Shown in pieces: positions 2,705-57,222 of a stretch of 64,000 bases of DNA. The DNA is from Isurus oxyrinchus. Taxonomy: Eukaryota. The translations under genes and the position numbers were made by a program. A model generated the notes under the pieces. The model saw only the letters and a list, made by a program, of their open reading frames with translations. It was not told where the DNA came from and made no database searches. The stretch covers positions 162,316,001-162,380,000 of the forward strand of contig JANJGN010000008.1 of the NCBI GenBank assembly GCA_026770705.1. The letters run 5' to 3'. Numbering within the stretch: the stretch's first letter is position 1; each line of letters begins with the position of its first letter.

Positions 2705-3160
2705 AAGTTAAGAGTCAACCGCATTGCTGTGTTTGTGGAGTCACATGTAGGCTAGGCCAGGCCAGGTGAGGATGGCAGATTTCCTTCCCTAAAGGACATT
2801 AGTGACATTAGACATTTACAACAATCAATGATCGTCAACAAAAACAGAATTACCTGGAAAAACTCAGCAGCTCTGGCAGCATCGGCAGAGAAGAAAAGAG
2901 TTGACGTTTCGAGTCCTCATGACCCTTCGACAGAACTGATCAATGATCGTCCATTGTTACTCAGACCATCTTTCAAAAGTGGATTTTATTAATTAATTTT
3001 ATTACTTAATTTATTAGTTGAATTATTGAATTTACTTAATTAATTAACTTTAATTACTAACTAAATTAACTGAATTTAAATTTCATCAACAGCCATGGTG
3101 GGATTTGAACCCATATCACCTAGGCCTCTGGATTACTAGTGATGTTACCATTATTCCATC
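2705..3160 (-). mobile_element. HE1-like tRNA-derived SINE, interrupted by a PLE mini-element
   Basis: Reverse complement of the 4350-4661 SINE: B-box rc GGGATTTGAACCC near 3100 and core GGCAGATTTCCTTCCCTAAAGGACATTAGTGA near 2775. Confidence 0.75.
2837..2938 (-). mobile_element. PLE mini-element (hammerhead-containing terminal repeat only)
   Basis: Near-identical to rc of 32474-32575; 13-bp TSD ATCAATGATCGTC at 2824-2836 and 2939-2951. Confidence 0.9.
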
Positions 3161-5908: not shown

Positions 5909-6515
5909 AAACTGGAGGAACAGTACCTCATCTTCCGACTAGGCACTTTACAGCATTCCAGACTTTTAGATCATGACCTCTCTCCTCCATCCTTATCCCC
6001 TTTCCGATCCCCCCTTTTTTTTTCCAATAATTTATATAGATTTTTCTTTTCCCACCGATTTCCATTATTTTTAAATGTATTTTCATACATTGTTTTATCT
6101 CTACCTTTTAGCTTATTCCGATCCCTTCCCTTCACCCCGCCCCACCCCCACTAGGGCTATCTGTACCTTGCTTGTCCGGCTTTCTACTCTTAATTAGCAC
6201 ATTCCTTAGATAATGTCCCCACCTTCAACATCTCTTTGTCCTTTTGTCTATGACATCTTTTGGTTATCTCCACCTATCACTGGCCCTCTATCCAGCTCTA
6301 CCTGTCCCACCACCCACCGCACCCCCCCCCCCCCAACCTTAATCCAGCTTATATTTCACCTCTTTTCTATTTTTCCTTAGTTCTGTTGAAGAGTCATTCG
6401 GACTCGAAATGTTAACTGTGTTCCTCTCCGCAGTTGCTGCCAGACCTGTTGAGTTTTTCCAGGTATTTTTATTTTTGTTTTGGATTGCCAGTATCCGCAG
6501 TTTTTTGCTTTTATA
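5909..6515 (+). mobile_element. 5'-truncated PLE, older subfamily: GIY-YIG C-terminus, 3' region, hammerhead and tail
   Basis: Starts with KLEEQYLIFRLGTLQ coding sequence, colinear with 31993-32582; hammerhead at 6379-6417 with stem II GAGUC/GACUC. Confidence 0.85.
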
Positions 6516-7448
6516 TAAAATAGCTGGCTGGCTAGTCATTATCTCATCTGAATCTCTTCAGTTCATGGCTGGGTTACAAAGATATCATTCTGTTGACTCA
6601 AGTGTCATTGAAGGTTAACTTTAAAATGGACCCAAGTGCTGTCCTGAGTGTAATACATAACCCTTAGGTGAGACAGGTCTCGAAGTGATTACATTTTACT
6701 TGCAGGCACTTAACTTCAGCAATACCTTAGAAATTACAAATGTTATTGGATGGGCAGAATTCTGTGTTAAGGACCTTGTCTATCTTCAAAGGCTAATAGC
6801 TCTGTGCATATACAGTTCCAATTATTTGCCTCCCGCTCAACAGCTTTTTGGATGATTCGAGCTATTGTTTCATCCGCAACTTTGACAACATACCAAAGAA
6901 TAGCTTCACTAGTTTGGCAAGGGCAACTAAGTGGCAATGCCAAGCCTAGTTTTCAAATGCGACAGCTGCTTTTCCCATTGAGTTCAAATGTACATTGAAA
7001 TGTGCTTCGCCAGTTATGAAGAGGATCCATTCAACATCTAATGCTTAGGTTTCATTGTTGTCGCAATAGCTTTCGGAAGTAAGGGTGCTTTACAACCAAC
7101 CTGATGCACTTTTCAGTCTAGGATGAATGTTAATGTGTTGCCACTAAAAGAAAGCTTTTGATTCCTTATTTCTTTCTCCTCTGTTTTTGTTTTAAAACAG
7201 ATTCACTTAAAGTAATTAGTGGCACTAGGTGTAACAAAAGCATGTAAAGGGAAGGTCCCAGACTCTGACATGTAGGCTCCTTGCAGTCAAGTACTTACAA
7301 GTGCAATTATTTTAGACAATCAATAATGTACAGTAGTGAATTTTTGAACAGAACTTCACTTCAGTCTTAGTATTTCTTGCATCTAAATACTCACATTTTC
7401 AAGCTAATTGTGAGTTAAACCATTTATGTCAAGCACTATTATAGATGT

Positions 7449-8221: not shown

Positions 8222-8782
8222 ATTACTGAGGTAAGGAAGGTTTGTCAGTGAACCGTACCAAACTTGTGCTTCTAGTAGCAAATATTACTGAACGTGTAAT
8301 TGTCTTTTATAGCAACCCACTCACTTTACCTGGTTTGGTTATCATGCAAGTTGTTATTTTAAAACTGCAAGGGTGTGTGCAGCCAAGAACATTTTGAAGG
8401 GAATAGGAAAAAGCAATGTTCTTGAAAAAATAACTTTTGTTTATTGCACATGTTCAAATCGCTATCACCACTGCTTATCAATCACCATTATATAGATTTT
8501 TCTTTCCCACCTATTTCCATTATCTTTAAATATTTTTAAATCTTTTATGCTCTCCCCACCCTCCACTAGAGCTATACCTTGGGTGCCCTACCATCCATTC
8601 TTAATTAGCACATTCGTTTAGATAATATCACCAACTTTAACACCTGTGTTCTTTTGTTCTATTGTTGTTGACATCTTTTGATGATCTGCTTCTATCACTG
8701 CTTGTTTGTCCCTACAACCACACCCCCCTCCACTTCTCTCTCTCTCTCCGCCCCCCCCCACCCCCACACACCTTAAACCAGC

Positions 8783-8822
8783 TTATATTTCAACTCTTTC
8801 TTGGACTCGAACTCAAGTTCTG
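8783..8822 (+). promoter_or_regulatory. Putative PLE core promoter (TATA-like TTATATTT plus Inr-like site at the hammerhead 5' end)
   Basis: TTATATTT lies 26-33 nt upstream of AGTTCTG; other copies read TTAGTTC (6377) and CTAGTTC (28055), matching Inr YYANWYY; mini-elements begin here. Confidence 0.4.
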
Positions 8823-8854
8823 TCGAAGGGTCATGAGGACTCGAAACGTCAACT
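8816..8854 (+). ncRNA. Minimal type I hammerhead ribozyme, variant core (representative copy)
   Basis: AGUU-CUGUCGA-A-GGGUC-AUGAG-GACUC-GAAAC-GUC/AACU: stem I AGUU/AACU, stem II GGGUC/GACUC, loopless palindromic stem III ACGU, predicted cleavage after C8850. Further copies at 6379, 10962, 28057, 28173, 32474, 51561 (+) and ~2899, ~26014, ~27686, ~30629 (-). Confidence 0.75.
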
Positions 8855-10664
8855 CTTTTCTTCTCCGCCGATGCTGCCAGACCTGCTGAGTTTTTCCAGG
8901 TAATTCTGTTATTGTTTACCATTTTTTGTAGCTATTTCAAATGCAAATGTTACTTTTATACATTAGTAGTATTTTACAAAGCAATTAAAGGGCAATTTTT
9001 GGGATTGTGTCAGGTTTTGGAAATCAGTTGCCCTTTATTTTGTACCAGAGGTCTGCTAATCAAATGACCTGTCAATGGTCCTTGTCTCTTAATTTTGCAC
9101 ATGAAAAGGAACCAGTTGCATCACAATGATACCAAAAGAGGCATGGATCCTCCCTTCCCTCCTCATGGGGGGGAGCCAACACCACCAGCAGGGCGATTAC
9201 CACCAGAAATCATGAACTCCCAACAACTGTCTAGGTTGATAAAATAAGCCCCTGCCAATCACTGCAACAATTCAGCGTTGTTTGCGACAGAGCCAGCACA
9301 AGAGCAAACTCACCTCCATGGCAAGTGCTGAAACTCCCAAAGTTACCAGGGGCTGAAATTCCAAATACAAAACGTATTGTTTGTAATTTTAACACTGGGA
9401 AGTATTTATTTTCAAGAGCTGTAGGAAGAACTTCTGGCAATTGATTCTGTCATTTATTGACAGCTGCGTTGGTTAAGTGGACGTATCAGTAAAGAAACAC
9501 TGGCGCACTTGCTCTAAGCACTCTCAGGAAACTATCTCTTGGGAATAATCGGAAGACACAAAACTTTTGTTTATCCTGTATTAATTCATGACAGTACGTG
9601 AAATGTAGACATTCTGAAAGAGTGGAAAACCCCAACAATAAATCACCTACATGCCAATTCAAGTCTCTTTGGTGGCACATTCTGTGTATGCATTCCATTT
9701 ATTGGCTAATTAAGTTGATGGCAAATGGCACTGGAGTGTTTGAGGACTGCTGCTGTGATTACTAACTGACTTCCACTTGACAGAAGGCTAATAAAAATGA
9801 AAGGCTTTAAATTCTCCAGGTAATTAGCACAGCACTCTTAAAAACCTACAATGATTGTTAATGAATAAAGAAAAAAAGGCCCATTATACAAATAACTTTC
9901 CAAAGACTGCTTTTATTTATGCTTTACCAAAAACACTAACAATAGAGAGACAGCAAAATAAATCTAGAAGTGTTTCATAATTTAAAATTAAATTTAACAT
10001 CTCACAGTGTAAGAGTAACTTGAAGTAACAGACTTCATCGTACAACCAGTCACTTATTATCAAATAGGCAACTGTGGCATTTGGTGTTCCATTGCAAAAC
10101 AATTTATATTAAATGGCTGTTTTTAAAGCGAGAACTAATTGTGAGAAAGGTCATGGGAGATTATAGACATTTAGTCAGCACAATGGGCCATTCCCTTTGA
10201 TAGTTCTCGAAAGCTGCTACTGAAGTTAATTCCACGCTTGGAATCCAGGTCCCAGTGGACATAACCCCACAATGAGAGACCACCCTCACTTCAGCACAAC
10301 TGCACAAAATGAAATCCTGCAACCTGTGTCAATCTAATACCCCATTCATACCATAGCAGTCACATTGGAGAGCACGTCATTGCATGTGGAGGAGTACGCC
10401 TGCTGATGAAATCACTCACACTTTCTAGTGATTTAATAAGTGGTGGCTGAATGAAGCGATTGTTTTATTGACTTGGCTGGCATTTGCTCCCATTGAAAAT
10501 TGGTAATGAAATGCTGAATAATAGATGAGAGAGAACCGGATACCACATTTTCACAGGAGAGTATAATCTTAGGCTAAATTAAGATGCATTTACAGTGGGA
10601 GTCCCATTGGATCTTGCCTTTCCCCCATCCCTCCCTCCTTACCCCATCTCCCCCATAACAACCC

Positions 10665-12807
10665 CCTGGATCAATCCTGGTTCAATGAAGAGTGCGGGGG
10701 GTGGGGGGGTGGGGGGGGGGGACATGCCAGGAGCAGCACCAGACAAACCTAAAAATGAGGCGTCAACCTGGTGAAGCTACAACACTGGGCTACTTGCATG
10801 TCAAACAGCGAAAGTAGCAAGTTATGGACAGAGCTAAGCGATCCCACAACTAACAGATCAGGTCCAAGCTCTGCAGTCCTGCCACATCCAGTCGTGAATG
10901 GTGGTGACAAATTAATCAACTCACTGGAGGAGGAGGCATCACAAATATCCCCATCCTCAACGTTCTGTTGAAGGGTCATGAGGACTCGAAACGTCAACTC
11001 TTTTCTTCTCCGCCGATGCTGCCAGACCTGCTGAGTTTTTCCTGGTAATTCTGTTTTTGTTCCCCATCCTCAATGATGGAGGAGCCCAGCACATCAGTGC
11101 AAAAGATAAGGCTGAAGCATTTGCTACAATCTTCAGCCAGAAGTGCCGAATGGATGATCCATCTTGGCCTCCTCCGGAGGTCCCCAGCATCACAGATGCC
11201 AGTCTTTAACCAATTCGATTCACTCCACGTCAAGAAATTGCAGAAGGCGCTGGATACTGCAAAGGCTATGGGCCCTGACGATATTCCAGCAATAGTACTG
11301 AAGACTTGTGCTCCAGAACTTACTGCACCCCTAGCCAAGCTGTGTCAGTACAGCTACAACACTGGCATCTACCCAGTTATGTGGAAAATTGTCCAGGTAT
11401 GTCCTGCACACAAAAAGCAGGACAAATCCAACCTGACCAATTACTGTCCCATTTGTTTACTCTCGATCATCAGTAAACTACTGGAAGGGGTCATCAACAG
11501 TGTTATCAAGTGGCACTTGCTTAGCAATAACTTGCTCACTGATGCCCAGTTTGGGTTCCACCAGGGTCACTCAGCTCCTGACCTCACTACAGCCTTGATT
11601 CAAACATGGACAAAAGAACTGAACTCTCAAGGTGAGGTGAGAGTGACTGCCCTTGACATCAAGGCCGCATTTGACCGAGTGTGGCATCAAGGAGCCCTAG
11701 CAAAACTAGAGTCACTGGGAATCAAAGGAAGACTTTCCGCTGGTTGAAGTCATACCTAGAACAAAGGAAGATGGTTGTGGTTGTTGGAGATCAGTCATCT
11801 CAGCTCCAGGACATGACTGCAGGAGTTCCTCAGGGTAGTGTCCGAGGTCCAACCATCTTCAGCTGCTTCATCAATGACCTTCCTTCCGTCATAAGGTCAG
11901 AAGTGGGGATGTTCGCTGATGATTGCACAATGTTCAGCACCATTTGCGACTCCTCAGATACTGAAGCATGTCAAAATGCAGCAGGATCCGGACAATATCC
12001 AGGCTTGGGCTGACAAGTGGTAAATAACATTCATGCCACACAAGTGCCAGGCAATGACCATCTCCAACAAGAGAAAATCTAACCATCACCCCTTGACGTT
12101 CAATAACATTACCATCACTGAATCCACCACTGTCAATATCCTGGGGCGTTACCATTGACCAGAAACTGAACTGAACGAGCCATATAAATACTGTGGCTAC
12201 AACAGCAGGTCAGAGGCTAGGAATCCTACGATGAGTAACTCATGTTCTGGCTCCCCAAAATCTGTCCATGATCTACAAGGCACAAGTCAGGAGTGTGATG
12301 GAATGCTCCCCACCTGCCTGGATGAGTGCAGCTCCCACAGCACTCAAGAAGCTTGACACTGTCCAGGCCACACAGCCCACTTGATTGGCACCACATCCAC
12401 AAACATTCACTCCCTCCACCACCGACGCAACTTAGCAGCAGTGTGTACCATCTACAAGATGCACTGCAGGAATTCACCAAGGCTCCTTAGACAGCACCTT
12501 CCAAACCCACGACCTCTACCATCTAAAAGGACAATGGCAGCAGATAGATGGGAACACCACCACTTGGAAGTTCCCCTCCAAGTCACTCACTATCCTGACT
12601 TGGAAATATGTCACCGTTCCTTCACTGTCGCTGGGTCAAAATCCTGGAACTCCCTCCCTAACAGCACTGAGGGTCTACCTACGCCACAGGGACTGCAGTG
12701 GTTCAAGAAGGCAGCTCACCAGCAACTTCTCAAGGGCAACTAGGGATGGGCAATAAATGCTGGCCTGGCCAGCGAAGCCCACATCCCTTGAATGAATAAA
12801 AAAAAAA
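10665..12807 (+). mobile_element. HER1-like non-LTR retrotransposon (CR1/L2 group), 5'-truncated, frameshifted RT
   Basis: ORFs 11073-11747 (KAMGPDDIP, QFGF, LDIKAAFDRVWH) and 11681-12013 (GVPQGSV, FADD); ends GAATGAATAAAAAAAAA. Confidence 0.92.
10961..11060 (+). mobile_element. PLE mini-element nested in the LINE
   Basis: 13-bp TSD TCCCCATCCTCAA at 10948-10960 and 11061-11073; starts at hammerhead stem I. Confidence 0.9.
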
Positions 12808-24619: not shown

Positions 24620-24733
24620 ATAACAAAAAGCAGAAAACAGTATAAAAACAGAAAATGCTGGAAAAACTCAGCAGGTCTGGCAGCATCTGTGGAGAGAGAA
24701 ACAGGGTTAATGCTTGACTCTTCTTCAGAGCTG
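24620..24733 (-). mobile_element. Old PLE terminal-repeat fragment with canonical hammerhead core start
   Basis: rc reads CAGCT-CTGAAGA-A-GAGTC... with the 3' half of the ribozyme deleted, followed by the PLE repeat body. Confidence 0.7.
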
Positions 24734-25180: not shown

Positions 25181-25955
25181 TAGAACAAGAGGATATTTTT
25201 CAAAGTTTAATACCTTCTCACATAGTACTGTGAGAAGATCCCAACAGATCAGAGTACCAAACTAAAGGATTCTGCTTTCCAAAACCCCCCCCAGCCAAAT
25301 TCTTGCCAATATTTACAAACTTGTTTTAGGCCTCAGTAAAAGGAATTCAACCTTAAATGTTCAAGAGATACCTAGTCGTAAACAAAAGCTTTGTTTCTGA
25401 GCTCTAAATTCTAGTTGCCGGAGACATGATAAAGACATGCTCATGGTCTGCTTCAATCAACACCATCAAGTGAAGTCAAACAGCAAAGCATCACTGAAAC
25501 AGATGAACATGCACCAGCCCTCAATAACATAAAGATGATGACATCGCAAGTCAAGGGTTGAAAACTGCTTTTTGTAATGGATTCTATTTCTTGGCAACTA
25601 AATGTCATTTATCTAATGCTGCTGCTTTTACTATTGCGAACATTCTAAATCTAAGTTTACTCATGCATTGTTTTCGTTGTTACTGTATACTGTAGGTAGA
25701 GCATCATCAAGGCAGTCAAATATTCACAATTAGAGAATCCGAAAGGATGTCTTTAAAGCTATTGATGTGCTTGACATCTGCAGAAAGTTAAGGCACCTCC
25801 CCATCACTAAATATGTGGCCAAGATATTTTACTGACTTGTTTTCTTATGCAATCTACACTAATGTTTCAATGAACCCTGCTCTCCCGCATCCTGCACCCA
25901 GAGCTGTTCCTTCCAGTTTTTGGCTAGCCTACTGAAAAGTACAAGAAGCCACTAC

Positions 25956-26175
25956 AAAAAGAGAATTACCTGGAAAAACTCAGCAGGTCTGGCAGCATCA
26001 GCGGAGAAGAAAAGAGTTGATGTTTCGAGTCCTCTTGACCCTTCCACAGAACAGGTCATGAGGACTCGAAACGTCAACTCTTTTCTTCTCCGCCGATGCT
26101 GCCAGACCTGCTGAGTTTTTCCAGGTAATTTTGTTTTTGTTTTGGTTTTCCAGCATCCGCAGTTTTTTGTTTTTA
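25956..26175. mobile_element. Young PLE inverted-pair insertion
   Basis: rc arm 25956-26052 and forward arm 26054-26175; 15-bp TSD ACAAGAAGCCACTAC at 25941-25955 and 26176-26190. Confidence 0.92.
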
Positions 26176-26822: not shown

Positions 26823-27584
26823 CTGTAAAAGGCAGTGTTTGGAGATAGCACCAACATATTTCTACTAACACTTGAGGCCTCACTACAGGGACAATGCCTT
26901 CTACTTTTGACTTCTATACTACAAAACGTCCAATACACAGGATTGAGATTCCAGTGCAAAGCCCTAAAGTCAATCCCATGCCTTATCCAAGGTAGTGGAA
27001 CTCACAGCCCATTAAGAGCATCGCAGTATTTATAGACAGGTTGGTAGTGGATTTCAAATTCAATTAGCTTTAACATAAACATGGCAACAATAGCTTGATT
27101 ACTGCCCTTGGCTCAAAATGTGAGGCAGCTGGTACAATAGGCATCTGACCTAATCCAAATCACATTATTTCAGTTCTGCGTGAACATTTTATTCAAACAT
27201 GAGAAAGGTTCTTTCATTTACAGGTAATTGATAGAAGCAAACTTTTATGGCTCCCAATAAACGTCAGATTGAGAGAAGTGTTTTGTTAAGGGTGATGTTC
27301 AGACGGATGGACACAGTCACATGCTGTTTAACAATTTTACTCACTGCAAATTGGTAACCTGTGTGAACATACCGAGGGCTCAAACAAAACTTTGAACTGG
27401 TCAATGGTTAATAACAAACATCTTTAACTTATTATCTCCAAGAATGAATGCCTAAAAATAAGACAAGATATCAGTTATTTTGATCTGCTTTTTCCAATTT
27501 TCCTAACACTTCCCACATGGTCAGTTCTGTTGCTATGCACCAATGGGGCACATGCCACACAGATAACAAACTGCAGAAAATACA

Positions 27585-28157
27585 GAGATAAAAACAAAAA
27601 AACTGCGGATGCTGGAAATCCAAAACAAAAACAGAATTACCTGGAAAAACTCAGCAGGTCTGGCAGCATCGGCAGAGAAGAAAAGAGTTGACATTTCAAG
27701 TCCTCATGACCCTTCGACAGAACTACAGAACTAGGTGAATCCAAGGAAGGGGTGAAATATAAGCTGGTTTAAGGTGTGTGTGTGTGGGGGAGAGAAGTGG
27801 AGGTGGGGGTGTGGTTGTAGGGACAATAAGCTGGTTTAAGGTGTGTGTATGGGGGGGGTGGGTTGGATGGGGAGAGAGAAGTGGAGGGGGAGGTGTGGTT
27901 GTAGGGACAAGCAAGCAGTGATATCACTGCTTGCTTGTTCCTACAACCACACACCCCCCCACTTCTCTCCCCCCACCCAACTCCCCCCCCCCCCCCCCCC
28001 ACCACACACACACACCTTAAACCAGCTTATATTTCACCCCTTCCTTGGATTCACCTAGTTCTGTCGAAGGGTCATGAGGACTCGAAACGTCAACTCTTTT
28101 CTTCTCCGCCGATGCTGCCAGACCTGCTGAGTTTTTCCAGGTAATTCTGTTTTTGTA
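27585..28157. mobile_element. Spacerless palindromic PLE insertion
   Basis: Centre AAGCAAGCAGTGAT|ATCACTGCTTGCTT at 27922/27923; TSD GCAGAAAATACA at 27573-27584 and 28158-28169. Confidence 0.9.
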
Positions 28158-28170
28158 GCAGAAAATACAT

Positions 28171-28271
28171 TCAGTTCTGTTGAAGGATCATGAGGACTCG
28201 AAACATCAACTCTTTTCTTCTCCGCCGATGCTGCCAGACCTGTTGAGTTTTTCCAGGTAATTCTGTTTTTG
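28171..28271 (+). mobile_element. PLE mini-element in tandem behind the palindrome
   Basis: Flanked by TTGTAGCAGAAAATACAT at 28153-28170 and 28272-28289. Confidence 0.85.
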
Positions 28272-28689
28272 TTGTAGCAGAAAATACATCTTTGGTGCAG
28301 GACCCACTAACTCATGAATGTCATGCAGAAGGAGTGACATTGGCTTCCTTCACTGCTATCCAAATGTACCTGAAACCACCTTGATTTTTTTTTAAGGGAT
28401 TAAATGCTTCATCTTTCACATATCATTGGGTTGCTTTGAAATAATCCTTTCAATATAGAGGTGGGGCATTGCAGAACCCATTGTTGCTGTTCACAGTAAG
28501 CTGCATAGTCAAACAGAAATGAAAGAAGGGAGGAGAGAAAGCTCAGGATTGAGATGAACAGAGACAAACCAGGAACAAAGTAGGAGCAATAAACAAAGAG
28601 AAGAACACCACAAACAAAGGAAAGAGTATCAGGATTGAAAATATGGACTGCAACAATAAAAAGATGAGAGAGCAAGCATGTTGGACTGG

Positions 28690-29865: not shown

Positions 29866-30433
29866 TTACTCCCCAAAGCCTGTCCACCATCTACAAGGCA
29901 CAAGTCAGGAGTGTGATGGAATACTCTCCACTTGCCTGGAATGAGTGCAGCTCCCACAACTCTCAAGGAGCTCAACGCCATCCAGGACAAAGCAGCCCAC
30001 TTGATTGGCACCCCATCCACAAACATTCACTCCCTCCACCACCGACACACAGTAGCAGCAGTGTGTACCATCTACAAGATGCACTGCAGGAACTCACAAA
30101 GCCTCCTTAGGCAGCACCTTCCAAACCCACGACCGCTACCATCTAGAAGGACAAGGGTAACAGACACACAGAAAAGCCACCACATGGAATATCCCCTCTA
30201 AACCACACACCATCCTGACTTGGAACTATATCGCCGTTCCTTCACTGTCATTGGGCCAAAATCCTGGAACTCCCTTCCTAACAGCACTGTGGGTGTACCT
30301 ACACCACATGGACTGCAACAGTTCAGGAAGGCAGCTCATCACCACCTTCTCAAGGGCAATTAGGGATGGGCAATAAATGTTGGCCTAACTAACGAGCCAA
30401 AGATGCTGACACCCCATGAGTGAACGAAAAAAA
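29866..30433 (+). mobile_element. HER1-like LINE 3' fragment
   Basis: Colinear with 12250-12807 (IHSLHHRHTVAAVCTIYKMHC); same 3' tail. Confidence 0.9.
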
Positions 30434-31075
30434 GATAAAGGGGTGGAATTCGCATTGCCAAATTCTGGCCCATGCCCCCTCCACCTTTAACTGTCAGTCA
30501 GTCATTTTACCCAACTCCAATATATATAAAAACAAAAAAACTGCGGATGCTGGAAATCCAAAACAAAAACAAAAACAGAATTACCTGGAAAAACTCAGCA
30601 GGTCTGGCAACATCGGCGGAGAAGAAAAGAGTTGACGTTTCGAGTCCTCATGACCCTTCGACAGAACTTGAGTTCGAGTCCAAGAAAGAGTTGAAATATA
30701 AGCTGGTTTAAGGTGTGTGTGTGGGGGGCGGAGAGATAGAGAGAGAGAGAGGTGGGGGCGGGGGTGTGGTTGTAGGGACAAACAAGCAGTGATAGAAGCA
30801 GATCATCAAAAGATGTCAGCAACAATGGTACAAAAGAACACATAGGTGTTAAAGTTAAAGTTGGTGATATTATCTAAATGAATGTGCTAATTAAGAATGG
30901 ATGGTAGGGCACTCAAGGTATAGCTCTAGTGGGGGTGTTTTTTTTTAAAAATAATGGAAATAGATGGGAAAAGGAAAATCTTTATAATTTAATGGAGGAA
31001 CAACACCTCATCTTCCGACTAGGCACTTTACAGCCTTCCGGACTGAATATTGAATTCAACAACTTTAGGTCGTGA

Positions 31076-31577
31076 ATCGGCATTCCGTAGGAATCGCTCC
31101 CTCCGGGACACCCTGGTCCACTCCTCCATCACCCCCTACTCCTCAACCCCCTCCTATGGCACCACCCCATGCCCACGCAAAAGATGTAACACCTGCCCCT
31201 TCACTTCCTCTCTCCTCACCGTCCAAGGGCCCAAACACTCCTTTCAAGTGAAGCAGCATTTCACTTGCATTTCCCCCAACTTAGTCTACTGCATTCGTTG
31301 CTCCCAATGTGGTCTCCTCTACATTGGAGAGATCAAACGTAAACTGGGCGACCGCTTTGCAGAACACCTGCGGTCTGTCCGCAAGAATGACCCAAACCTC
31401 CCTGTCGCTTGCTATTTTAACACTCCACCCTGCTCTCTTGCCCACATGTTTGTCCTTGGCTTGCTGCATTGTTCCAGTGAAGCCCAACGCAAACTGGAGG
31501 AACAACACCTCATCTTCCGACTAGGCACTTTACAGCCTTCCGGACTGAATATTGAATTCAACAACTTTAGGTCGTGA
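31076..31577 (+). CDS. PLE GIY-YIG endonuclease domain, copy 1 (no RT, no ATG)
   Basis: AFRR..SLRDTLV, Cys linker CPRKRCNTC (Neptune-type), VYCIRCSQC..YIGE, RFAEH, EQHLI..L.GLN. Confidence 0.85.
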
Positions 31578-32079
31578 ATCGGCATTCCGTAGGGATCGCT
31601 CCCTCCGGGACACCCTGGTCCACTCCTCCATCACCCCCTACTCCTCAACCCCCTCCTATGGCACCACCCCATGCCCACGCAAAAGATGTAACACCTGCCC
31701 CTTCACTTCCTCTCTCCTCACCGTCCAAGGGCCCAAATACTCCTTTCAAGTGAAGCAGCATTTCACTTGCATTTCCCCCAACTTAGTCTACTGCATTCGT
31801 TGCTCCCAATGTGGTCTCCTCTATATTGGAGAGACCAAACGTAAACTGGGCGACCGCTTTGCAGAACACCTGCGGTCTGTCCGCAAGAATGACCCAAACC
31901 TCCCTGTCGCTTGCTATTTTAACACTCCACCCTGCTCTCTTGCCCACATGTCTGACCTTGGCTTGCTGCATTGTTCCAGTGAAGCCCAACGCAAACTGGA
32001 GGAACAACACCTCATCTTCCGACTAGGCACTTTACAGCCTTCCGGACTGAATATTGAATTCAATAACTTTAGGTCGTGA
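31578..32079 (+). CDS. PLE GIY-YIG endonuclease domain, copy 2
   Basis: About 7 substitutions from copy 1 over 502 nt; YIGETKR motif intact; followed by the native 3' region. Confidence 0.85.
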
Positions 32080-34369
32080 GCTCCCTCCCCCATCCCCACC
32101 CCCTTTCTGTTTCCCCCTTCCTTTTTTTTCCAATAAATTATAAAGATTTTCCTTTTCCCACCTATTTCCATTATTTAAAAAAAAAATTAAAAAAAAACAC
32201 CCCCACTAGAGCTGTACCTTGAGTGCCCTACCATCCATTCTTAATTAGCACATTCGTTTAGATAATATCACCAACTTTAACTTTAACACCTATGTGTTCT
32301 TTTGTACCATTGATGCTGACATCTTTTGATGATCTGCTTCTATCACTGCTTGTTTGTCCCTACAACCACACCCCCCACCTCTCACTCTCTCTCGCTCTGT
32401 CTCTCCGCCCCCCCCCCCCACACACACACCTTAAACCAGCTTATATTTCAACTCTTTCTTGGACTCGAAATCAAGTTCTGTCGAAGGGTCATGAGGACTC
32501 GAAACGTCAACTCTTTTCTTCTCCGCCGATGCTGCCAGACCTGCTGAGTTTTTCCAGGTAGTTCTGTTTTTGTTTTTGTTATCCAACTCCAATATTCTTA
32601 TAATTAATTAAAAAAGGATATTCAAAGGAAGTGACAAAAAAAAAAAATCATTTTTCTTTTATTGCCCCTATGACTTCTTCCCCCCTCCCCATGGGCTGCT
32701 CGGAGAGTAACTCAGGGATTAAGTTTTAATTCCTGGAGGCTCCAGGACAACCTGGAGGGTTGGCAGCTCTAGGCACATCTAAAGGTGAAGGATGGGGAGG
32801 CAGCCATTGTCCAGATTTGGTTAACTTTAGCAAAGCACAGCTGCAGCTTCTTCCGACACGCGTCGCTGCCACAGACTCACAATGGCAACACAGTTATGGT
32901 CGCAATTAGCAGGTTCAAAGAAAATTGAGTAAATTATTTGCAGTCAGCTTTGGCCGAGCGCCGACATCCCAAATTGGCTGACCTCAAAGTGAGGGACGCA
33001 TGAGCCGTTCTGACCGATCACTGGCTCAGCCGCTGTCTATGCCCCACTTATATCTGAAGTCAGTGATGTACTCCCAGCGCTATTAGATCTTGTTGAACAG
33101 CTGAAGCTCAGTTAAAAAGCATCTCCCTTAATGTGCAAAGTAGTTCTGTCATAACTGGAACATTCTGTCAAGTTCAAACACACGCATGGATTAAATCTTA
33201 CCAGCAAGTATGTAACACTAAACAACAGGATTGACGCTAGGACAGGTTTGTAGTCCTAATCCCTCGTTATATCCTTATCTGCATCATTCCACCTTTTGCA
33301 CCCACTACACTGTGATGAAGTGAAGTAGAACAAAATAAACCAGCAGGACACATCAGGACAGGTTATAAAAGTGGCTGGGGTTAGACTGTGAAAAAGTGAA
33401 GTTGCACAGAACAGAGCAGAGGTCTGTTTGTTTGAAAGGCACACTGCTTCAGGTGGAGTGGATTTCAGACCCCTGATACATTCCTGGAATGCAGTGAATT
33501 TTCATGCTGCACAAGGTTTATGAAACATCCACGTAAATGGGAACGAGAACCCCTGCCTGCAACTGATTCTGACAAAAGGCTGTATATGCTTTGCTTCCAC
33601 AATGAAATATGGTTGAAGCTTTATTGGATCACCCTAATGTATGTGAAACCTTTTTCCATTTGATTACCCTCATTCAGCCAAAATACAACTGCGCTGCTCC
33701 GCAGGAAGGTAACTTGAAATGAAAGAACTTACAGTAACTCTACCCATTGGTTTGCTTATGATTCTGTCAGTTACGGGAGCTATGTGGATTCATTTAAAGC
33801 CTTAAGCACCTTCACTTTCCTGGTGAAGTCAAACATAATTTGCCTCCAAGAAGGTTAATCGTGCAGCATTTTTGGATTGGAAGTGAAGCCATTCAAGCGC
33901 CAATCACTGGAATCTCAGCAGGGTTGCACTTGGAACACTCATCGCCATATTCAGGGGTCCCTCAATTCGAGGATGACATCAGCTCAGGGTCTTTGGAGGG
34001 GGGGAGGCGGGGGGGGGGGCGGGTGTGGTCGATGACTTACCTCGGGGGATGGATCTGCCACAAGTATCAATCTGACCCTCTGTTCCCATCCAACCTCATG
34101 GCCAAAGCGCAACTTCACTCCTGATTTCTTTGCGTGTTGAAGCAGCCAAGTATAACCAGCAGTGCCATATATTCTGGATCACCAGTGGGCACGGATTCTG
34201 CCACTAGTGCCTGCATACAGGAACCCATTCAGTAGGCCCATTCAGCCCTTCGAACTTACTCTCTATTCAATTAGACCATGGCTGATGAGATTAAAAGGCT
34301 TGAACTGAGTTTCAAGACATTGAATCCACCCTTTTTTTAAATCGCACTTCTTCTTTCCAGAAGATCATC

Positions 34370-38863: not shown

Positions 38864-40142
38864 CTGAAAGCAAGTAATCAATAAAAAAAAGAGTACAGGG
38901 CCTCAGTGAAATGACTCTTCCTTCTTCTCTCCACCCCCTGAAGGCACCTATTTCCTTCCTGGGTATTACAGGTGCCACACATACCCCCCAGCATCCAGAG
39001 TGGCAATTATTCATGCATGGGAGCCTTTGACAATGTCAGCAGATTGTTTGACCAAAGCGGCCATTAGAGTCAACTCAACCCTATCCTATCCTCACATATC
39101 CTTCCAACCAGCACTGCTGGATAATGATCAGGAGTAGGAATCCCTGATCCTGGGGTATTGAGACTAATGTAGCTAAGATCGGCCAGTGCCATTGATTAGG
39201 CCTGAACCCGGGACCTTTGCAGTCAGTATTTCTGGGTTACTCACATGAGTGAAGTTTCCCAGTGGTCAAGGGACATTCTTATTGTAAGAATTAATATCCT
39301 GAACTAATACCCGGTCTTCTTTTAACAAAAACTTCACGATTTAACAGTTCCCAGGCCCTGGCACAAGGAAAGCTGTTCCGATCGATTCTGCCAATCAGTT
39401 CCTGCTATCTCAGTAGCTTCTGATTTTTAAATAAATGTCCAGTCTACTTGCTGCCTGTAAATAGCTACAGCCTTGTTAATCATTAACAATTTCTTACAAC
39501 AGATGCAGAGCAGAAAGTGAAATTACATGAGCATAAACATGGATAGGTCTAGTCATTTTAGAGGGAAAGGTAATTTGAATGTTTAATACTGAAAAATAAA
39601 CACGCTTCATTTTTGACTCTGTTGCTTTCTTTTCAGCTTCCACACCAACTTGTAACACGTTCTGTGCATCAATGAGCCTGCAATTAAGACTATTTGGTAT
39701 TTAAAATAGCAGTTTTTAATTATTAAATGCCGCTCCCAATTGCATTTGGGGTCTCCTGCAATGTTGACTTCTTTGTCTCTGTTCAGTCATAATGCTCCAT
39801 TCATGGATTTCTTCCAACCTTTCTCCCACGTGTGGACTTTGATAATACTTACTCGCTGTTCTTTGCTGTATCTTCCAGCAGTGCATGTTACATGGTTGTC
39901 AAATTTAGGCGATATGCAGATAATGATAACTTCTCTGGAATTGCTGATGAACTTCGCCATTATTCCACACGTCCTGTGAAATTTATTATGTAATAAATGG
40001 GAAGAATCGTTGAAATATTCTGTGTGGCAGAAATTAAAAAATAAGAACCTGCTGTGTTTATCCAAGCACCTTCATTTTCAGCTTTTCAGTTACATCATTA
40101 AAATGGAAGCTTGTTAATTTATAAAGGGGCAGTGCTCTACAG

Positions 40143-40510
40143 AAGATCCGGAGGACATGCTACAAGGAATGTTGTGGCACCAGCCCCACAAGATTACCCA
40201 GTACAAGAAGGGAAAAGATTCCTTATACACACAGGATAAGATGCATTATGACAGAAAGCAGAGTGGCTATGGTGGACAGACAAAGCCGATATTTCGGAAA
40301 AAGGCTCAGGCCACAAAGAAGTTTGTGCCGAGCCTGGAGTGTGTGGAGCCCAACTGTCGATCGAAGAGAATGCTGGCCATCAAGAGGTGCAAGCATTTTG
40401 AACTAGGTGGAGACAAGAGGAGGAAGGGCCTAGTCATCCAGTTCAAAGCTGCATCCTTTGTGTTCTTTGGAGTGTACATTCACAATAAAATTAATTAAAG
40501 TTAAAAAAAA
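40143..40510 (+). pseudogene. RPL36A: Processed pseudogene of ribosomal protein eL42
   Basis: Intronless [69 protein letters not shown]. The N-terminus is frameshifted near 40175, the stop is mutated to AAA, with AATAAA at 40484-40489 and A8 at 40503-40510. Confidence 0.95.
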
Positions 40511-50944: not shown

Positions 50945-51990
50945 CAGTACAGCACAGAAGGAAGCCATTCAGCTCATCAAATCCATGCCAGCTCTATGTG
51001 GAGCAACACAATTAGTCCCATTGCCCACTCTATTCCCATACCCCCACACGTTTACTTTGCTTAATACCCATCCAATTTCCTTTTGAAATCATTCACCCTC
51101 ATAGGCATCAAGTTCCAGGTCATTACCACTCACTTTGTAAAAGATTTGGTTCTCATGCCCCCTCTGCATGTTTTGCCCAAAAATCCTGAATCTGTGTCCC
51201 CTAATCCCTGTACTATCAGTTAAAAGGAAGAGATTTTCCCTGTCTACCTTATTTAAACCTGTCATAATTTTGTATACCTCTATCAAATTGCCTTTTCTCC
51301 AAGGGGGACAACCCCAGCTTCTCCAGCCTAACCATGTAGCTAACATCTCTCATCTTTAGAACCATTCTGGAAAATCTCCTCTGCACTCTCTCAAGGACCC
51401 TCACATCCTTCCTAAGTTTGGTCACCAGAACTGTATGCAATATACTGGTTGTAGCCCAACCAGCGCCTTATAAAAGGTTCATCATACCCTCCCTGCTTTT
51501 ATATTCAATACCAGTATTTATGAAGCCCAAGATTCCATATGCTTTGTGAACCACTCTCTTAGTTCTGTGGAAAGGTCATGAAGACTTGAAATGTCAACTC
51601 TTTTCTTCTCCGCCGATGCTGCCAGATCTGTTGAGTTTTTCCAGGTAATTCTGTTTTTGTTTTGGATTTCCAGCATCCGCAGTTTTTTGTTTTTAACTCT
51701 CTCAATATGTCCTGTCACCTTCAAAGATTTACGCGTATGACTCCAGATCCCTCGACCCATGCACACTTTTTGGACTGCACCATTAAATCTATATTACTTC
51801 TCCCTATCCCTTCTGCCAAAGCCTCACATTTCTCTTTCATAAATTCCATCTACCAGTTGTCTGCCCATTCTACTGGCCTATTTACATTCTGTTGCAGTCA
51901 ATTGGATCATCTTCACTGTTTGCCACACGCCCAAGTTTCTCGTCATTGGTAGATATGGAAATGTTACGAGGTATTCCAATATCCAAATCA
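50945..51990 (-). mobile_element. CR1 fragment carrying a PLE insertion
   Basis: ORFs LERVQRRFSRM and GNLIEVYKIMTGL. Confidence 0.8.
51560..51695 (+). mobile_element. PLE mini-element with tail
   Basis: Starts TAGTTCTG; TSD ACTCTCT at 51553-51559 and 51696-51702. Confidence 0.85.
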
Positions 51991-56241: not shown

Positions 56242-57222
56242 TTTTTTTTATTCATTCACGTGACGTAGGCTTCGCAGGCTGGGCCAGCATTTATTGCTCT
56301 TCCCTAGTTGCCCTTGAGAAGGTGGTGGTGAGCTGCCTTCTTGAACCGCTGAAGTCCATGTGGCGTAGGTACACCCACAGTGCTGTTAAGGAGGGAGTTC
56401 CAGGATTTTGATCCAGTGACAGTGAAGGAATGGTGATATATTTCCAAGTTAGGATGGTGAGTGATTTGGAGGGGAACTTCTACGTGGTGGCGTTCCCATC
56501 TATCTGCTGCCCCTGTCCTTCTAGATGGTAATGGTCATGGGTTTGAAAGGTTCTGTCGAAGGAGCCTTGGTGAATTCCTGCAGTGCATCTTATAGATGGT
56601 ACACACTGCTGCTACTGTGCATCGGTGGTGGAGGGAGTGAATGTTTGTGGATGTGATGCCAATCAAATGGACTGCTTTGTCCTGGACAGTGTCCAGCTTC
56701 TTGAATGTTGTGGGAGCTGCACTCATCCAGGCAAGTGGAGAGTATTCCACCACACCCCTGACTTGTGCCTTGTAGATGGTGGGCAGGCTTTGGGGAATCA
56801 GGAGGTGAGTTACTCATTGCTGGATGCCTAGCCTCTGACCTGCTCTTGTAATCACAGTATTTGTATGGCTGGTCCAGTTCAGTTTCTGGTCAATGGTAAC
56901 CCCCTGGATGTTGATAGTTGGGGATTCAGTGATGGTAATGCCATTGAACATCAAGGGGTGATGGTTAGATTCTCTTTAGATGGAGATGTTCATTGACTGG
57001 CACTTGTGTGGTGCAGATGTTACTTATCACTTGTCAGCCCAAGCCTGGATATTGTCCAGGTCTTGCTGTATTTGGGCATGGACTGCTTCAGTATCTGAAG
57101 AGTCACGAATGGTGCTGAACATTGTGCAATCATCAGCAAACATCCCCACTTCTGACTTTATGATAGAAGGAAGGTCATTGATGAAGCAGCTGAAGATGGT
57201 TGGGCCGAGGACACTACCCTGG
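56242..57222 (-). mobile_element. HER1-like LINE 3' fragment
   Basis: ORF 57027-57278 QGSVLGPTIFSCFINDL..FADD; rc of 11830-12807. Confidence 0.92.

Follow-up and report, generated by a model that had tools for sequence, protein, structure and literature searches.

A 100- to 140-nt repeat recurs in the 64,000-nt stretch of Isurus oxyrinchus DNA analysed here (the window), and several copies of it begin almost exactly where the first helix of a hammerhead motif begins. The original prediction read these short insertions (minis) as full-length cDNAs of a short, uncleaved RNA that starts at the promoter of a Penelope-like element (PLE), and proposed either a SINE-like unit or integrated products resembling strong-stop DNA. 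What are these insertions, and why do so many of them share one 5′ end?

The minis are the end of a young Penelope-like element

The mini repeat is the end of a young PLE. With +1 taken as the A of the AGTT that begins hammerhead helix I, the 4.98 Gb genome containing the window holds 106,809 exact matches to +58 to +93 and 63,921 to +10 to +51. One locus (L079) presents a 3,324-nt unit in which a leader (+1 to +175) is followed by an ATG at +176 and a 925-aa stop-to-stop frame with similarity to reverse transcriptase (RT) and to GIY-YIG endonuclease (EN). The profile scores of this frame (RVT_1, E = 1.3e-5; GIY-YIG, E = 8.8e-4) both fall under the gathering score, and a fragment in the window clears the GIY-YIG cut-off. 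Because +1 to +175 precedes the open reading frame (ORF), a mini is the 3′ end of one unit and also the 5′ leader of the next.

The features of EN+ PLEs are present, namely a single ORF with RT and C-terminal GIY-YIG, a pseudo-LTR, an inverted truncated arm, a tail at one end and a target site duplication (TSD). Fragments in the window carry a Cys-rich linker, CPRKRCNTC, between RT and EN. A linker of this kind defines the Neptune clade (PMC8557442), and its presence suggests an element of Neptune type, a placement made by motif. Arrays that repeat in tandem every 3.33 kb or so lie at G000:C1 462206/465559/468899 and 78762612-78769295 and are candidate sources of read-through RNA.

Positions +1 to +39 match a minimal type I hammerhead motif in which helices I and II and the GAAA box are present. 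The hammerhead pairs are conserved in about 90% or more of 338 copies, with G-U changed to A-U at one pair in 22. The core is non-canonical in 318 of 345 copies, which have U for A at position 6; the canonical CUGANGA occurs in 19 of 345. Rfam returned no family at gathering score for the mini or its hammerhead, and the folding energies of minis were no better than those of shuffled sequences.

Copies in the window

Four solo minis are present. The one at 2837..2938 (minus strand) extends from -1 to about +101 between the two copies of a 13-nt TSD (2824..2836 and 2939-2951), and contains the minimal hammerhead motif (2899..2937, minus strand; core CUGUCGA instead of CUGANGA, by sequence and descriptor scan) and the leader as far as the first predicted RT-entry site. 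A second, at 10961..11060 (plus), begins at +1 as the variant CGTT, without AG at +1/+2, and also has a 13-nt TSD (10948-10960 and 11061-11073). The third, at 28171..28273 (plus), begins at -2 and has a 16-nt TSD (28155-28170 and 28274-28289) whose target site is that of the adjacent inverted element. The last, at 51560..51695 (plus), reaches from -1 to about +136 and carries a 35-40-nt tail; its TSD is weak, with 7 low-complexity nucleotides where 11-16 nt is the norm in the family.

The original observation was that four of the insertions have TSDs of their own. Of the duplications just listed, those of 13, 13 and 16 nt are clear and the one at 51560 is weak, and the mini at 28171 is not fully independent. 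Its target sequence occurs three times (27574-27587, 28155-28170 and 28274-28289), such that this mini and the inverted element at 27588-28156 share one site and one of them landed inside the TSD of the other. Two further boundaries had also been placed at AGTT. In the head-to-head pair at 25954..26175 (15-nt TSD), the minus arm (25954-26052, +2 to +100) does begin there, and its plus-strand partner (from 26053) runs from about +13 to the tail end. In the old, diverged copy at 24640..24733 (minus; CTGAAGA core) homology stops near helix I, and this boundary is an end of homology only, since no TSD is visible.

Longer copies in the window include an inverted pair of subfamily B at 27588..28156 (+1 at 27724 in one arm, minus, and at 28057 in the other, plus), whose minus arm contains an 8-nt stutter at 27717-27732, just as had been reported. 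A long subfamily-A insertion at 30526..32585 consists of an inverted pseudo-LTR arm (+1 at 30668, minus) and a 3′ UTR with hammerhead (+1 at 32474, plus), and holds GIY-YIG-coding fragments in duplicate (31047-31577 and 31549-32079). Within this one insertion, about 500 nt of the GIY-YIG-coding region are directly duplicated at 30993-32079 (unit positions 2428-2929 twice). A 5′-truncated long copy of subfamily A lies at 8487..8917 (plus, +1 at 8816), and an older long copy of a related subfamily at 5909..6517 (plus, +1 at 6379) has the same TATA-like box upstream. The window also contains LINE-like RT fragments at 11049-12805, 29870-30433 and 56242-57221, which by their motifs we take to resemble CR1/L2; the mini at 10961 sits in one of them. 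A frame at 40118-40498 (plus) resembles ribosomal protein eL42/L36a and is probably a processed pseudogene.

5′ ends accumulate at the start of the hammerhead

Copy ends were mapped in the first 100 matches of a 3′-anchored pattern, which are consecutive copies from 3.4 Mb of one contig. The 5′ ends were called by comparison with real long copies, and genome-wide counts were made by exact patterns. Thirty-one of the 100 copies start between -10 and +10, or 29 after removal of two miscalls (L024) that really reach about -13 and about -26, and 14 start between -2 and +3. The boundary within about 2 nt of AGTT that had been proposed is found in the four window minis (starts at -1, +1, -2 and -1), and the peak for the family is wider. 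The rate of ends is 2.2% per nt in the -10 to +10 interval and 0.21% elsewhere, a ratio of 10.6 (Poisson P = 2e-21) computed with the two miscalls included and with three arm pairs that share an insertion; the rate at the peak is also 7.3 times that of the nearby positions.

Genome-wide nested counts agree. Among 74,935 copies with +1 to +20, 36,322 (48.5%) extend from +1 to -15 in the subfamily-A form, while the next stretch of equal length (15 nt, -15 to -30) is crossed by 35,275 of 43,793 (80.5%). An extension of about 63% is expected across +1 to -15, since 66 of 84 long C-type copies belong to subfamily A, and by arithmetic from the nested counts about 24% of copies, some 18,000 of C type, end within this step. 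If the 29% of the sample is extrapolated to the 106,809 exact matches, there are about 30,000 minis overall.

The pile-up is found in subfamilies whose sequences from -1 to -25 differ. The peak is broad, and microhomology at the junctions blurs ends by 1-2 nt. The claim that ends in the AGTT region are not random truncations is supported. Moreover, none of the 100 copies starts at the predicted ribozyme cut (+33 to +39), which argues that the template was uncleaved RNA, again in keeping with the original prediction.

Mini starts move with an upstream TATA-like box

A TATA-like box, TTATATTT, is a putative promoter element that occurs at 28027..28034 (plus), 22 nt before AGTT in subfamily B, and at 32441..32448 (plus), 25 nt before AGTT in subfamily A. 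The box is common to the subfamilies seen, and the 22-25 nt between it and AGTT vary in sequence. The distance first given for it, 26-33 nt upstream, is right for subfamily A only, and the copy at 28057 has the box at -30 to -23. Among long copies, a 25-nt spacer is found in 66 of 84 of C type; in 44 of 57 of G type and 25 of 30 of T type it measures 22-23 nt.

This natural variation in spacing is accompanied by a shift of the 5′ ends. At least three templated upstream bases are present in 20 of 42 C-type mini insertions compared with 3 of 44 of G or T type (P = 2e-5), in a comparison that dropped five rows (long copies with a damaged box), assigned minis to a class from base +9 alone and drew its C and G sets by different sampling. 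The start is about 3 nt further upstream in the subfamily whose box is 2-3 nt further away. Initiation by RNA polymerase II keeps a fixed distance, about 28-30 nt, from a TATA-like box, and a shift that follows box spacing is what a transcription start set by the promoter predicts. Were the end set by a splice site or by the ribozyme fold, it would stay at AGTT; the observed ends move with the box. Judged from these alignments, the site likely behaves as a promoter-set RNA start, as originally proposed for it, and would be a Pol II start.

In favour of this reading, RNA of the 50 nt upstream is predicted to form no stable structure (-1.5 and -2.3 kcal/mol). Other observations are less favourable. 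The box TATATTTC is a weak TATA, which counts against the promoter reading. Untemplated G, the mark of a cap, is not in excess among TSD-resolved solo minis (2 of 24). Also against it, the promoter of D. virilis Penelope is internal and TATA-less (PMC2377424), helix I in that element marks where an intron ends and not the transcript start (PMC4209133), and a YAG preceded by a pyrimidine tract occurs in the present element too. The RNA data covered were assembled contigs, which displayed no start site, have no interpretable depth and are uninformative here. A putative TATA and initiator were noted earlier in a rotifer pseudo-LTR (PMC3846280).

Two 3′ end sites mark predicted sites of RT entry

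The 3′ ends are bimodal, with 105 of 209 copies ending at +93 to +112, 97 at +123 to +151 and 7 running into the ORF. Minis and long copies divide alike between the two sites (P = 0.44). Head-to-head pairs supply 39 of the 75 minis as their arms, and in 32 of 34 such inverted pairs there is one 3′ end of each kind. In an Anolis element the tail lies between two internal RT start sites. There, DNA synthesis extends both strands of the target, goes ahead without ribozyme cleavage, and keeps its start when the RNA is lengthened 3′ of the sites (PMC11167929). The two 3′ end sites observed here match the two internal starts that bound the Anolis tail, and positions around +100 and +140 are accordingly predicted, by analogy, to be RT entry sites.

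The head-to-head insertions have several further peculiarities. The two arms of a single insertion differ at +9 or +22 in seven cases (L127, L138, L141, L160, L200, L220 and L075), a difference that would stem from the use of two RNA templates or from mutation afterwards. At L105:5090-5295 two inverted arms are separated by about 200 nt of DNA foreign to the element, and 71 nt of likewise captured DNA lie between TSD and mini at L020:1551-1625.

The leader has its sole good splice donor at +85/86, and 2 nt ahead of the ATG (+176) stands an AG that resembles an acceptor. These signals predict an 88-nt 5′-UTR intron (+86 to +173; L079, minus strand) that spans both predicted RT entry sites. The layout resembles that of the D. 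virilis Penelope 5′-UTR intron, which lies 46 nt after the transcript start (PMC2377424). The intron is a prediction only, with 0 matches to intron-less copies against 3,767 intron-side matches, and no spliced joint is seen among the matches listed in assembled RNA contigs. If it is real, copying from the 5′ entry sites would be possible on unspliced RNA only.

The template can be long, and minis are not a separate lineage

Two copies with the mini start are far longer than a mini, L099 running from -1 to +1015 and L073 from -12 to +1096. RNAs that begin at the site can therefore be long, and a short RNA is unneeded. Among 37 copies that contain the ORF start (judged by eye; 39 printed copies less one older family and one cut copy), 20 extend past -40, 5 begin between -12 and +15, 10 within +96 to +143 and 2 elsewhere. 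At least four bases of internal leader follow the tail in 8 of 32 long-tailed minis and in 18 of 78 long copies, some of these bases overlapping the TSD. The distinct short RNA of the original prediction is not borne out by these data.

The ten starts within +96 to +143 (L126, L130, L177, L241, L243, L244, L245, L248, L250 and L257) form a second 5′-end cluster, at the RT entry region. It is tempting to speculate that they represent cDNAs halted at an occupied 5′ entry site.

Whether minis form subfamilies of their own was checked with sequence variants. Minis and long copies contain the C, T and G variants at +9 in equal proportion, and of the 30 variants tested 29 show no bias toward either. 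The exception, +22A, was found in 11 of 82 minis and 1 of 192 long copies of the sample; a test of nearest-neighbour labels also scored above all 300 shuffles. Genome-wide, 3,829 of 6,899 +22A copies (55.5%) reach -12, with 3.3-kb tandem spacing, which indicates that the local bias came from sampling; +22A was rejected both as a mini-only lineage and as a mark of cDNA editing. A mini-only lineage with +9G was rejected as well, 13 of 30 such copies being long by script and three more by eye.

No two of the 43 non-inverted minis share a host flank, the eight pairs with matching flanks having element sequence in common, and host-flank transduction between minis was rejected. Each subfamily tested yields minis and long copies alike. 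Copies are solo or head to head, not tandem units bounded at the cleavage site as in non-LTR retrozymes. With about half of the minis being arms of inverted pairs, a separate SINE-like lineage is not supported.

A model for mini formation and its alternatives

We consider it probable, at roughly 0.7, that minis arise by run-off, as cDNAs that RT makes on ordinary long PLE RNAs by entering their 5′ leader at +100 or +140; these RNAs would start at -4 to +2. This adopts the second option of the original prediction, products like strong-stop DNA, given the start shift and the long copies with the same start. The TATA-like promoter in the upstream pseudo-LTR would start RNA just ahead of the ribozyme. 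Transcribed from a partial tandem, such an RNA would continue across the ORF and on into the downstream pseudo-LTR, which would provide it with two sets of RT entry sites. Entry at the 5′ set would give a run-off cDNA of 100 or 140 nt that halts at the first base of the RNA and is inserted singly, or joined head to head with a cDNA of the other strand; entry at the 3′ set would give long, randomly truncated copies. The minis themselves would be dead ends.

The strongest competitor, which we nevertheless hold to be unlikely, is that transcription starts further upstream and that processing creates the 5′ end of the RNA at +1, for example through a 5′-3′ exonuclease stopping at the protein-bound ribozyme fold, or that RT stops at a protein on the pyrimidine tract. 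Ends do coincide with the first base of helix I, the cap mark is not seen, and the Anolis ribozyme depends for cleavage on a protein of its element, a hint of a protein-RNA complex at this place (PMC11167929). Ends made in this way should be fixed to helix I, yet they shift with the upstream box, though such a shift might also be imitated by a protein bound to the box; RT would already be past the fold on reaching +1, and the upstream RNA is unstructured. A distinct 100-140-nt RNA from the same promoter, without a lineage of its own and formed by promoter-proximal termination or cleavage, would yield the same 5′ ends and spacing shift if capped, and most minis do stop sharply at two sites. Long copies stop at the same two sites, however, long-tailed minis enter the leader about as long copies do (with the TSD overlap mentioned above), same-start copies exceed 1 kb and the Anolis RT required RNA 3′ of its start sites (PMC11167929), making such a template quite improbable.

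Even less can be said for YAG|TTCTG as a 3′ splice site whose ends mark spliced or lariat intermediates. Most subfamilies have a pyrimidine tract and AG there, and the D. virilis intron ends at helix I (PMC4209133), but the ends are not fixed at +3 and usually include templated upstream bases, TSDs mostly adjoin the element with no exon between, no donor scoring at least 4/7 lies within 420 nt upstream, and two minis begin with CGTT and lack the AG; we regard this as very unlikely. At the bottom of the scale are two readings that we judge to have scarcely any chance of being correct. A self-propagating SINE-like or retrozyme-like family with its own source copies could account for solo copies with their own TSDs and for the +22A skew in the sample and its label test, yet the upstream box is missing from minis, +22A is a subfamily like any other, the other 29 variants do not differ, and both the inverted-pair arms and the absence of a common host flank among non-inverted minis speak against it. 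An antisense template, as proposed for rotifer PLEs (PMC3846280), would make +1 the point where RT starts and has in its favour the head-to-head pairs with palindromic junctions found here; it is the 3′ sites that are sharp, being shared by 202 of 209 copies while 5′ ends vary, and in vitro the Anolis RT starts at the tail sites (PMC11167929).

If run-off cDNA formation at the leader is the source of minis, such cDNA might also be transferred. Jump scars, taken as indels of at least 3 nt at -1 to +2, occur in 2 of 202 long copies; stutter is rare, and was rejected as a common scar of jumping. Six same-sense joins connect -2 to -45 to internal positions (L099, L107, L064, L073 and two in L179; a count without a background rate), and a seventh, old and 70% alike, was left out. 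The joins at L099:4480-5660 and L073:3660-5040, for example, link a mini or something close to one with a site inside the ORF. Such joins may be template jumps made at the 5′ end of the RNA, or else skips on tandem RNA. A bolder proposal, which we put forward as doubtful, is that PLEs regularly make target-primed strong-stop cDNA, with entry in the 5′ leader, run-off at the capped end and a jump to the 3′ repeat that would rebuild pseudo-LTR and promoter; minis and internal joins would then be failed transfers, present in tens of thousands.

Relation to known elements

In minus-strand strong-stop DNA of retroviruses and LTR elements, synthesis begins internally and gives a short cDNA that reaches the 5′ end of the RNA, and a repeat could allow its transfer to the 3′ end. 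Minis would differ in that nicked target DNA primes them and they integrate in that form.

The element shares with EN+ PLEs, likely of Neptune type, one ORF for RT and GIY-YIG, partial tandems, an inverted 5′-truncated arm, TSDs, a 30-40-nt tail on one arm and a hammerhead in the pseudo-LTR (PMC8557442, PMC3846280). The available text of these papers describes 5′ truncation and no preferred 5′ end, whereas here a single site accounts for the ends of some three in ten young copies. A search at the level of titles and the openings of abstracts, with most subscription papers outside its reach, found no description of a preferred 5′ end of PLE copies; Fig. S2 of PMC11167929, on genomic coverage, could show such ends. 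The Anolis Poseidon element PAc likewise has two RT start sites that bound the tail downstream of the hammerhead. Its ORF starts within the ribozyme, unlike the ATG at +176 found here, and the text covered describes neither a transcription start nor short run-off insertions (PMC11167929).

In D. virilis Penelope the transcript starts in the upstream pseudo-LTR, as proposed here, and genomic copies keep the 5′-UTR intron; its promoter is internal and TATA-less, in contrast to the TATA-like box upstream of the putative start in the present element (PMC2377424). Helix I of the D. virilis ribozyme is at the intron's 3′ end and the ribozyme follows it (PMC4209133), whereas here the ribozyme lies at the presumed transcript start. 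Metazoan PLE minimal hammerheads have the same short helix I, helix II and palindromic minimal helix III, and many single hammerhead motifs have been attributed to truncated PLEs (PMC4209133). The motif studied here differs in its predominant core, CUGU(C/G/U)GA, and copy ends are not mapped in the available text of that paper. Non-LTR retrozymes are also non-coding, PLE-derived and equipped with a type I hammerhead (bioRxiv 10.64898/2026.07.22.740005; PMC7229834). They are tandem units cut from ribozyme to ribozyme, unlike minis, which are single or head to head and have an uncut ribozyme at the 5′ end (bioRxiv 10.64898/2026.07.22.740005).

Implications

All of the components discussed above were already known; a preferred 5′ end linked to promoter spacing is the part for which the literature search described above found no precedent. 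Minis are a real, non-random by-product of a known element type. This finding bears on how PLEs, whose RT is the closest relative of telomerase RT (PMC8557442), are copied and rebuild their pseudo-LTRs. If our reading is true, genomic copies alone would place a transcription start to within a few bases and make a subfamily-specific prediction for CAGE, and the internal RT start known in vitro would have a large by-product in vivo. Short hammerhead repeats of this kind should then not be annotated as SINEs or retrozymes.
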